NCBI GenBank assembly: GCA_018647505.1
Contig: JABGSX010000006.1
Location: 245-64,244, forward strand
Length of the DNA: 64,000 nt
Direction: 5' to 3'
Source: a bacterium
Lineage (GTDB): Bacteria > Babelota > Babeliae > Babelales > JABGSX01
Notes under the pieces: model-generated
Seen by the model: the letters and a program-made list of their open reading frames with translations, nothing else
Database searches by the model: none
What the model was told of the DNA's origin: nothing
Position numbers and translations under genes: made by a program
Shown here: piece after piece, positions 62,731 through 64,000 of the stretch
Numbering within the stretch: the first letter of the stretch is position 1
How the letters are laid out: every line of letters starts with the position of its first letter

Positions 62731-64000
62731 TTATGCTTCATTCCAATCTGCAACAGCATCACCTTGTGCATATCCAGAAGCCATGTCTCCGACGGCTCCA
62801 ACTGCATAGGCATCATGCTGTGCAACAACCAAACGAACTTCTTTGTAAATTGACTTGAGCCAACCAAGGACAGAAGTCTGTGTGTTGCCAAGATCGGCAT
62901 GTCCCGTTAATAATGAATTGGTCCTAGCAGGAATAAACGTTGTTGTTCCTACACCAAGCTGCGTCCATGTTTCATTGAACTTGCCATCATACGCGGTCCA
63001 TGTTTCAGCAAACTTGTCATCATACGCAGTCCAAGTTGTTACAAACTTATCGTCATACGCTGTCCAAGTTTCTACGAACTTGTCGTTGTATGCTGTCCAA
63101 GTTTCAACAAACTTGTCGTTGTATGCGGTCCAAGTTTCAACAAACTTGTCATCATACGCAGTCCAAGTTGTTACAAACTTATCGTCATACGCAGTCCAAG
63201 TTGTATGGAAGCCTTCTGTAGCTAATGTCCATGTGCCACCAAAGTCACTTGTGCGGATCTTATCGAAGTTGGTTTGCAACATTGTCCAAGTTCCACCAAA
63301 GTCTGATGTTCTGATCTTGTCAACTTCTGTGTCAATCGTTACAACGTCAGCTGCCAATTCGTTAATAGCCGTTGTTAAATCGTCTGCGTCTGGATTTAAG
63401 TAATTAAAGTTAACATTACCAATTCGATCAAGAATCTCATTTACATGACCGAAAATAGATTCATCGCCATCACTTGCATCATCAGTTGGAATACCAATTC
63501 TACCAAACAATGTGTCTGTATCTGCTGCTGTGGCATCCGATTGTGAATCATTCCAATCGCCAACTCTATTAAGCACATCTTGAACCATTGTCCATGTAGC
63601 GCCAAAGTCTGTTGTTCTTATCTTGTCAACTTCAACAGCAATGCTGTCTACAACTGTATCGACTGTATCAACCTTATCTTCGATTGTGTCAACTACTGTT
63701 GCAATACTGTCTACAACTGTATCGACTGTATCAACCTTATCTTCGATTGTGTCAACTACTGTTGCAATACTGTCTACAACTGTATCAACTGTATCAATCT
63801 TGTCTTCGATTGTGTCGACTACTGTTGCAATACTGTCTACAACTGTATCTATCGTATCAACCTTGTCTTCGATTGTGTCAACTGTGTCGTAAATATGTTC
63901 AACGGAATCACCAATAAATCCGTACGGAGAGTCCTCAACATGAATCTCAGCCAAGATATCACTCAAATCTCCAAGAACCGTATTTTCCGTACTATGATTT
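62731..64000 (-). CDS. Large repeat protein, C-terminal 420+ aa (5' end beyond window); coiled-coil heptads plus Trp-rich 11-mers, fibre/adhesin-like
   Basis: The ORF-track start at 63966 is a TTG. The frame stays open to position 64000 (…NHSTENTVLGDLSDILAEI…). Contains four 21-aa VDTIEDKVDTVDTVVDSIATV units, three DKIRT.DFG.TWT units and seven TWTAYDDKFVE units. Confidence 0.8.
   Translation of the reverse strand, partial: NHSTENTVLGDLSDILAEIHVEDSPYGFIGDSVEHIYDTVDTIEDKVDTIDTVVDSIATVVDTIEDKIDTVDTVVDSIATVVDTIEDKVDTVDTVVDSIATVVDTIEDKVDTVDTVVDSIAVEVDKIRTTDFGATWTMVQDVLNRVGDWNDSQSDATAADTDTLFGRIGIPTDDASDGDESIFGHVNEILDRIGNVNFNYLNPDADDLTTAINELAADVVTIDTEVDKIRTSDFGGTWTMLQTNFDKIRTSDFGGTWTLATEGFHTTWTAYDDKFVTTWTAYDDKFVETWTAYNDKFVETWTAYNDKFVETWTAYDDKFVTTWTAYDDKFAETWTAYDGKFNETWTQLGVGTTTFIPARTNSLLTGHADLGNTQTSVLGWLKSIYKEVRLVVAQHDAYAVGAVGDMASGYAQGDAVADWNEA
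62963..63193 (-). repeat. In-frame 33-nt tandem repeat, 7 units
   Basis: Plus-strand units GTCCA[AT]GTT..ACAAACTT.TC.TCATACGC. at 62963, 62996, 63029, 63062, 63095, 63128 and 63161. Encodes TWTAY[DN][DG]KF.. Confidence 0.95.
63638..63889 (-). repeat. In-frame 63-nt tandem repeat, 4 units
   Basis: Units start with GCAAT[GA]CTGTCTACAACTG at 63638, 63701, 63764 and 63827. Units 1 and 2 differ at only one position by eye. Confidence 0.95.

Follow-up and report, generated by a model that had tools for sequence, protein, structure and literature searches.

A truncated coiled-coil repeat gene beside metG in Dependentiae, a candidate member of a family of exported fibres

What protein is encoded by the long and highly repetitive reading frame at the end of a contig from the Babelales (lineage Babelota), and what might such a protein do for the cell? 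The stretch of DNA considered here, referred to as the window, is the 64,000 nucleotides (nt) at positions 245 to 64,244 of contig JABGSX010000006.1 (assembly GCA_018647505.1). The frame in question is the 3' part of a large gene (62731-64000, minus strand; 422 codons and the stop), in which a first-pass annotation, made without database searches, had recognized two kinds of tandem repeat and had proposed a fibre or adhesin-like protein, either of the cell surface or derived from a phage, with a novel ladder of tryptophans. We consider it reasonably probable that these 422 codons specify the C-terminal end of a very large coiled-coil fibre, alpha-helical and exported by the Sec pathway, which belongs to a family of the Dependentiae.

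A large gene truncated by the end of the contig

The minus-strand frame was confirmed to be open to the window edge, running from 63999 for 422 codons to a TAA at 62733-62731. The other two minus-strand frames over 62731-64000 contain many stops, and the chance of 422 codons without one is about 8e-14 at the 36.4% GC of the window. The source protein, P0001 (NCBI MBT3455567.1, "hypothetical protein HN446_00730, partial [bacterium]"), has 491 amino acids (aa), of which the window encodes residues 70-491, and its contig is 64,451 bp long; the gene is truncated by the contig itself, not merely by the window. Upstream of the window the contig supplies 69 more residues, which include further 21-aa repeats and another EVDKIRASDFGGTWTILG motif; the front of such a gene was seen in a relative (L028, described below) with a ribosome-binding site, an ATG and a signal peptide.

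An intrinsic terminator (AAAAGGCCCCUC-cuugu-GAGGGGCCUUUUUUUU; 62669-62700, minus strand) lies 30 nt past the stop and before the neighboring gene metG, with a predicted free energy of -21 kcal/mol (z = -4.3; none of 200 shuffled sequences reached this stability). Differences among the 33-nt repeat units described below are mostly synonymous, with variable third positions in the T1, T3, A4, Y5, and F9 codons (ACT/ACC/ACA, GCG/GCA, TAT/TAC, and TTT/TTC) and an invariant peptide TWTAY..KF. Because the frame is longer than expected by chance, the stop is followed by a terminator, and these differences are mostly synonymous, this is a real coding sequence under selection. The 491-aa protein has no cysteine, and its rod is strongly acidic (D+E 21%, K+R 6%). 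No paralogue of it was found within the window.

Antisense open reading frames of 73-182 aa cover the repeat arrays on the plus strand (62855-63403, 63000-63221, 63612-63917, and 63623-63892). These are by-products, open only because the repeats lack stops, and gene-calling programs could be misled by them.

Architecture of the repeats

Read from the contig end toward the stop, the window protein begins with a unique 39-aa linker (NHSTENTVLGDLSDILAEIHVEDSPYGFIGDSVEHIYDT; 63883-63999, minus strand, as are all segments of the protein), which in P0001 is preceded by the 21-mers and the EVDKIRASDFGGTWTILG motif that lie outside the window. Four 63-nt units follow (63631-63882), each encoding 21 aa or three heptads, VDTIEDK VDT[IV]DTV VDSIA[TV][VE], with V at position a and I or V at position d. 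Tandem Repeats Finder detected this array as a 63-nt period in 3.9 copies (63638-63883, 94% matches, score 429), and the second array as a 33-nt period in 7.3 copies with a 66-nt super-period (62963-63202, 84% matches); together with the codon phase, this places both arrays where the first-pass annotation had put them, save for a phase shift of 7-8 nt. The 63-nt units are 84-94% identical to one another at the DNA level. Units 1 and 2, which had been described as almost identical, are indeed similar (92%, with 5 of 63 nt differing), but the highest identity, 94%, is that of each of them to unit 3.

The coiled-coil block is closed by the first EVDKIRTTDFGATWT motif (63589-63633), and the DFGG equivalents in such motifs are helix breaks as predicted by DSSP on the structural model. 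A unique acidic segment of 87 aa (MVQDVLNRVGDWNDSQ...AADVVTIDT; 63328-63588) comes next; its amphipathic periodicity is about 100 degrees per residue (hydrophobic moment z = 3.2 at 98 degrees), and it is predicted with low confidence to form broken helices. Beyond it are two further DKIRTSDFGGTWT units (63202-63327), EVDKIRTSDFGGTWTMLQTNF and DKIRTSDFGGTWTLATEGFHT, which correspond in alignments to DFAGTWT units in the orthologues described below. All three DKIRT..DFG.TWT motifs listed in the first-pass annotation are thus present, but they do not form one series: the acidic segment splits the first from the second and third (63265-63327 and 63202-63264).

The 33-nt array consists of seven units encoding TWTAY[DN][DG]KF[VAN][ET] (62971-63201), in which T-W-T-A-Y and K-F are invariant; the unit peptide is written here as TWTAYDDKFVE. 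Units 1-2 and 5-6 are a duplicated block, 97% identical, and this duplication is recent. A degenerate eighth unit, TWTQLG, begins at 62970, so that tryptophan recurs at 11-residue spacing eight times running, which fits the [FW]-x10 pattern, repeated at least seven times, that has been described for tape-measure proteins (PMC3271669). The C-terminal tail of 79 aa (62734-62970) starts with this degenerate unit, as KFNE-TWTQLG, and holds GWLKSIYKEV at 62836-62865. It had been described as a unique domain of about 75 aa, which is true only of its last ~34 aa; the two motifs are conserved in orthologues from the Dependentiae.

Searches of the protein against Pfam, PHROGs, NCBIfam, and PDB sequences returned only sub-threshold generic coiled-coil matches, one of the weak PDB-sequence matches being that of the 21-mers to the trimeric coiled coil of reovirus sigma-1. 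In the 21-mers the hydrophobic moment is highest at a period of 3.5 residues (0.453, z = 7.7 against shuffles), which bears out the V/I heptads noted at first reading. By the coiled-coil rules that Harbury et al. are said to have set out in 1993, beta-branched residues at both a and d favor trimers, and because V or I occupies both positions here, the chains probably form a parallel trimer; the weak sigma-1 match is consistent with this. The evidence supports the earlier proposal that the frame belongs to a large fibrous protein, whose coiled coil has a V/I core and is probably trimeric.

Relatives among the Dependentiae and Babeliales

The last 209 aa were used in an exhaustive HMMER search of 1.84 billion representatives. 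This search identified one small orthologue, P0142, and a profile search added three more, P0187, P0188, and P0189; one of the four is annotated as a Candidatus Dependentiae bacterium protein, and KJZ61_01050 (GCA_023382795.1) is an example. Their lengths are 209, 214, 245, and 263 aa, and they have a Sec signal peptide and two to four DFAGTWT units. Their C-terminal DFVETWTVLG...EWLKLIYNKVK aligns with KFNETWTQLG...GWLKSIYKEV of the window protein (BLASTP to P0142, E = 2e-12), and the invariant columns across the family are ETWTxLG ... WLKxIYxxV. All four genes are directly upstream of metG, with a heparinase II/III gene beyond it, and upstream of each are two genes, for proteins of about 660 and 1360 aa, without a Pfam or NCBIfam match.

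Because the four orthologues differ by whole DFAGTWT units, change in copy number is directly evidenced, and the variable copy number expected in the first-pass annotation is supported for the family. The DF[AG]GTWT units, the C-terminal motif, the position before metG, and this variation are common to the small orthologues and the window protein. The small proteins differ in having pairs of cysteines and in lacking the VDT 21-mers and the 11-mer arrays, whereas the window protein has no cysteine, is at least 491 aa long (probably more than 1700), and has about 34 extra residues at its C terminus. On these alignments, the window protein can be placed in an unnamed family of exported repeat proteins that is so far restricted to the Dependentiae.

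More distant resemblance was found to giant secreted proteins of 900-2400 aa from the Babeliales (P0073/P0179, P0078, P0079, P0083, P0084, and P0109), several of which are annotated Candidatus Babeliales. These contain many C[DE]KF[EQ].TW[TS][IA]L motifs and end in right-handed beta-helix domains. They have a signal peptide, as does L028, and are like the window protein in [DK]F..TWT motifs at helix-compatible spacing and in genomic neighborhood: in locus L030, P0179 lies just past metG, on a backbone of permease, solute-binding protein, a 1459-aa gene, a 583-aa gene resembling those for outer membrane proteins (OMP-like), metG, and further on heparinase. They differ in their beta-helix ends (PF13229; one also has WD40), in units of 18-54 aa that are rich in cysteine, and in having no VDT heptad blocks. 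WD40 proteins and junk-translation matches in the same exhaustive search (P0075-P0077, P0081, etc.) were set aside as matches to periodic tryptophan only.

Tandem arrays were observed around these giant genes. Locus L031 has five tandem paralogous secreted genes of about 1470 aa (879-19826), each with TWT-motif repeats, and in L030 five beta-helix-type genes of 419-485 aa follow P0179 (10001-25512). The tandem beta-helix arrays suggest a rapidly expanding family of surface or secreted proteins in the Babeliales.

A conserved locus with a variable slot

Within the window, the repeat gene is followed by metG (60653-62593, minus strand), the conserved downstream neighbor and synteny anchor, and then by a heparinase II/III-like gene (58664-60559, minus strand); the encoded methionyl-tRNA synthetase and heparinase-like protein are 58% and 39% identical to those of locus L024. 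The synthetase is 56-58% identical to those of metagenome-assembled genomes (MAGs) of Dependentiae/Babeliales, and the taxonomic placement is based on this identity and on synteny; a genome scan with gyrB returned only remote matches from mixed phyla (42-62% identity) and did not help. The full order of the locus is ATP-binding cassette (ABC) permease, solute-binding protein, secreted protein of about 1350 aa, OMP-like gene, a slot that holds the repeat gene, metG, and heparinase II/III, of which the downstream half is seen in the window and the upstream half only in L028 and the orthologous loci.

In every Dependentiae locus examined, a conserved gene pair precedes the slot (L001 1765-7936; L024 1783-7936; L025 1804-7951; L028 2123-7977; L030 1517-7730). 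It encodes a secreted protein of 1345-1459 aa and a protein of 573-674 aa with a signal peptide and a canonical C-terminal outer-membrane beta-signal (...GIGIYF, ...GIRVEF). Neither the ~1350-aa nor the OMP-like protein had a Pfam, NCBIfam, or PDB-sequence match.

Scanning JGI metagenomes with P0001 identified L028 and a phage-like contig, L029. L028 starts with the same permease and solute-binding protein, followed by orthologues of the 1350-aa gene (33% identity) and of the OMP-like gene (28%; ending ...GIRVEF). The next open reading frame has a Shine-Dalgarno sequence AAGGGAG, an ATG at 8045, and a signal-peptide-like MSDTRKKGMLRKVCKLVLFSMIANIVLGTCHMVA, in which T precedes the only cysteine at -1 and there is no canonical lipobox. 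A module of about 190 aa after the signal peptide aligns weakly with the N-terminal [KR]AP.R.D... module of the Babeliales giants. Then come more than 1000 aa of VDTIE[DL]KV[DN]T[IV]DTVVD[ST]IATV units, whose 63-nt repeats are 90-92% identical to those of the window, and the contig ends inside them after 1211 codons in frame. The heptad phase in L028 is unbroken for about 580 residues; of its two shifts, one falls across the stretch containing the only DFGGTWT motif and the other at a brief irregular segment.

In view of the synteny of L001, L024, and L025, L028 and the window appear to show one type of locus from its two sides. On that basis the complete protein, with no single contig spanning its gene, would probably exceed 1700 aa, and the window would hold roughly its last quarter. 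In L030 the slot between the OMP-like gene and metG was observed to be a 280-nt spacer with no recognizable remnant (7731-8010), and because the slot is empty, the repeat gene is dispensable or has been relocated in that Babeliales genome. What the slot contains in different lineages thus ranges from nothing (L030), through an orthologue of 209 aa, to a protein whose repeats exceed 1200 aa (L028) and, by inference, more than 1700 aa. A slot that varies from absent to a rod of about 200 nm is a marker of rapid evolution at the host interface.

Fold of the 11-residue repeats

The 11-mers had been read in the first-pass annotation as a novel Trp ladder, with T-x-T arrays as on the face of a beta-solenoid. 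Their W2, Y5, and F9 are instead spaced 3-4-4, as are positions a, d, and h of a hendecad, in which 11 residues make three helical turns. AlphaFold was run on the 491-aa protein alone and on the last 209 aa with the four orthologues, from alignments of one or five rows. Both runs gave helix throughout (mean pLDDT about 54), with the 11-mers as one continuous helix that was the best-scored part of the model (pLDDT 64-75), interruptions at the DFGG motifs, and a C-terminal tail below 50.

Spacing of the T[WF][TS] motifs in the relatives is also compatible with a helix: the spacings of 11, 18, 22, 25, 29, 36, and 54 residues are sums of 7s and 11s, and 83% were helix-compatible (7a+11b), where chance would give 36%; for a turn of 3.6 residues the circular resultant was 0.65. 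These counts are not independent, the units being duplicates. In the relatives the TWT motif lies within plainly helical sequence, continuing as TWTAIEELQ.... On the models and these patterns, the 11-mer array is likely a helical hendecad, comparable to that of phage tape-measure proteins rather than a new beta Trp ladder. To our knowledge, 11 residues per coil is shorter than in any known beta-solenoid. The heptads and hendecads would be useful natural test cases for coiled-coil structure, the former with a phase unbroken for about 580 residues in L028, and the latter with an all-aromatic W/Y/F core in units nearly identical to tape-measure repeats.

A proposed envelope fibre and the alternatives

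The closest matches of the repeats are the 11-aa repeats, marked by W or F, of phage tape-measure proteins and the giant secreted proteins of the Babeliales. Among known kinds, the window protein also resembles trimeric fibres such as the reovirus sigma-1 tail, phage neck or head fibres with KxDTVDTVVDxI, and autotransporter stalks, in which long heptad runs have a beta-branched core, heptad and hendecad segments are mixed, and a rod leads to a small terminal domain. It differs in having no YadA-type anchor, head or neck domains, or beta-spiral; no Pfam match to the YadA-type anchor or to Hep_Hag/HIM heads and necks was obtained even at E <= 1, and the C terminus is the 79-aa tail, predicted to be helical or disordered. 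The protein is best filed as a long coiled-coil fibre of an undescribed lineage-specific family, and we found no publication describing this family.

The rod is built of the 21-aa units, with their three heptads and beta-branched V/I at a and d; DKIR-x-x-DFGGTWT motifs, where AlphaFold breaks the helix, interrupt its blocks; and it ends in seven or eight hendecads, with aromatic W/Y/F at a/d/h, and the short tail with ETWTxLG...WLKxIY. At 0.1485 nm per residue, the known 491 aa would extend for about 73 nm, and a front like that of L028 would add at least 146 nm, for a total of more than 200 nm. The protein may be located on the cell envelope or within it, as an acidic rod or spacer of great length, with one or both of the conserved ends docking to an envelope partner, possibly the neighboring OMP-like protein, and its length could be reset as 63-nt and 33-nt units are gained or lost.

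Protists are the hosts of the Dependentiae, which live as intracellular parasites and have an exported proteome that is very large and rich in ORFans (PMC6561590). Contact with the protist host or its vacuole membrane, or spacing from it, would be the likely role of the fibre. A host-interface role such as glycan or membrane contact is suggested because the Babeliales cousins end in beta-helix domains and a heparinase-like gene is nearby. The surface and host-contact machinery of these widespread obligate parasites is essentially unknown, and this locus is a concrete candidate for it.

A more elaborate version, which we regard as a long shot, is that the secreted protein of about 1350 aa, the OMP-like protein, and the length-hypervariable coiled coil form a trio that is an undescribed envelope-fibre system of the Dependentiae, in which the rod would be a ruler or spacer to the host membrane and the aromatic hendecads might be a metamorphic segment, their sequence being ambivalent between helix and hairpin. 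A precedent for such a segment is the central fibre of the F7 pyocin, with its switch from coiled coil to beta-prism (PMC12874032).

Several points weigh against an exported helical fibre. The N terminus of this gene lies beyond the contig end, so that export is known from the relatives only, and a complete giant orthologue was not found: GTDB species genomes scanned with the protein gave no relative, JGI metagenomes scanned with the orthologue alignment gave nothing, and a search with the N-terminal 231 aa of L028 gave no match. The label "OMP-like" is given by a signal peptide and a C-terminal beta-signal, with no support from hidden Markov models or PDB. The AlphaFold confidence is low, and single-sequence runs lean to helices. 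The 11-mer has nearly equal Chou-Fasman propensity for helix and strand (1.07 and 1.03), its moment does not stand out clearly at 98 degrees (z = 4.1) from those at other harmonics, and FVETWTAY followed by DDK, NDK, or DGK can equally be read as a strand and a tight turn. The trimeric state, the surface location, and the host contact are predictions from sequence.

One alternative is that the protein is a periplasmic tether or ruler that would link or space the outer membrane, through the OMP-like protein, and the wall or inner membrane, in the manner of Lpp or of OmpM/SlpA stalks, with the length of the rod setting the dimension. In the relatives the gene adjoins the OMP-like gene in the same orientation, the family is Sec-exported with no obvious signal for translocation across the outer membrane, and the ~150-180 mature residues of the small orthologues would reach about 20-25 nm if they were one continuous helix. 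A rod of more than 1700 aa, however, is far too long, since more than 200 nm cannot span the periplasm; Pfam and library searches found no lipobox, SLH, or peptidoglycan-binding domain, and the empty slot in L030 implies that the protein is dispensable. We consider a tether rather unlikely.

It is decidedly unlikely that the 11-mers fold as beta strands, in a meander of hairpins or a short solenoid, and display a T-W-T ladder on a surface like that of adhesins or ice-binding proteins, although beta-branched and aromatic residues are abundant in the unit, DDK, NDK, and DGK readily form turns, FVETWTAY by itself favors strand (Chou-Fasman 1.19 against 1.07 for helix), and the harmonic analysis is indecisive. 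The flat T-x-T face of an ice-binding beta-solenoid was replaced in the two low-confidence AlphaFold runs by a single continuous helix, at the highest pLDDT of the model, and both the 3-4-4 spacing of the aromatic residues and the spacing and continuation of the motif in homologues fit a helix.

Little credence is given to a secreted effector that would act inside the protist cell as a coiled-coil mimic. Such a protein would not be out of place in the large exported, ORFan-rich share of the Dependentiae proteome (PMC6561590), the family evolves rapidly, and there are weak, below-threshold matches to the coiled-coil Legionella effectors LegC2/C7. However, hundreds of near-identical heptads, in phase for about 580 aa, fit a structural rod better than a specific mimic, and the gene is paired in a conserved manner with envelope-type genes.

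Resemblance to phage proteins

Tryptophan at every 11th residue, encoded in 33-bp repeats, has been described as a hallmark of the tape-measure proteins of phages (Belcaid et al. 2011, PMC3271669), so that the pattern in the window protein is not new. The exhaustive search returned tape-measure proteins (P0089, P0090, P0103, P0111, and P0112) with 11-aa repeats such as TWTAIKDFFID and IWNKIKDKAVx, four of which (P0112, P0089, P0103, and P0111) match the 11-mers (TWTAIKDFFID against TWTAYDDKFVE), and the best PHROG match was to the tape-measure family phrog_1535 (E = 4e-10), over the repeat and coiled-coil stretch only. The likeness extends to the 33-bp period, the invariant W, an F four residues before it, near-identical units, and predicted helix. 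The typical C-terminal motif of tape-measure proteins, of the GEAGPE type in these matches, and their hydrophobic or glycine-rich segments are missing from the window protein.

The 21-mers have phage counterparts as well. A search with the whole fragment returned only KxDTVDTVVDxI coiled-coil proteins, at 20-50% coverage, many with PF23991 (DUF7310); those inspected had N termini resembling immunoglobulin domains. The match of PF23991 to the window protein itself (32 bits, E = 1.8e-7) is below the 40-bit Pfam gathering threshold. One such protein, P0004 (361 aa, with VDTVDGVVDGIQTDVTSIE[SG]K repeats), is encoded between the genes for the major head protein and the tail sheath on a myovirus-like metagenomic contig (L027 8001-9086), and L029 is similar. 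This suggests that DUF7310-type coiled coils are neck or head fibres of phages, and the likeness of the window 21-mers to them appears confined to the low-complexity heptad pattern.

A phage origin, in which the gene would encode a prophage tape-measure protein or a tail or neck fibre whose companion genes lie beyond the contig end, could draw on all of these matches, yet we consider it very improbable. The similarity is restricted to the repeats, the relatives bear Sec signal peptides, and no viral contig in IMG/VR encodes a relative. Downstream of the gene are a terminator and metG, not a tail module, and in three other Dependentiae lineages the slot has a conserved chromosomal location, with the OMP-like gene on one side and metG on the other. 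On the visible side the window contains housekeeping genes, namely metG, the heparinase II/III-like gene, topA, and further on sufB, gyrB, and glmS, and no phage genes. For annotation, W-x10 repeats by themselves should be read neither as "tape measure" nor as a beta "Trp ladder".

A pseudogene or an assembly artefact of collapsed or chimeric repeats is scarcely credible: the window contig and L028 do both break inside a repeat, and copy number in short-read MAGs is unreliable, but no stop interrupts the frame in the 491 codons here or the 1211 of L028, the units differ with a bias toward synonymous substitutions, and the proper signals, a ribosome-binding site, a start, and a terminator, can be recognized.

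Other features of the window

Three other regions of the window were noted. An operon at 49817-54714 (minus strand) looks, by eye from its translations, like the bat type, with two proteins resembling von Willebrand factor A domains with DxSxS motifs, a BatD-like protein, and a tetratricopeptide repeat (TPR) protein (51564-52682) whose low-complexity tail of about 200 aa is rich in K, E, Q, and N. Four tandem paralogous TPR-repeat genes, each encoding about 560-617 aa, occupy 10975-18468 (minus strand) and have only sub-threshold NCBIfam matches to TPR families of the MamA/PrsT type. An open reading frame of 579 aa at 33721-35460 (plus strand), without an NCBIfam match, lies in the sole 2-kb bin of the window with positive GC skew (34001-36000; GC 0.405, skew +0.012).

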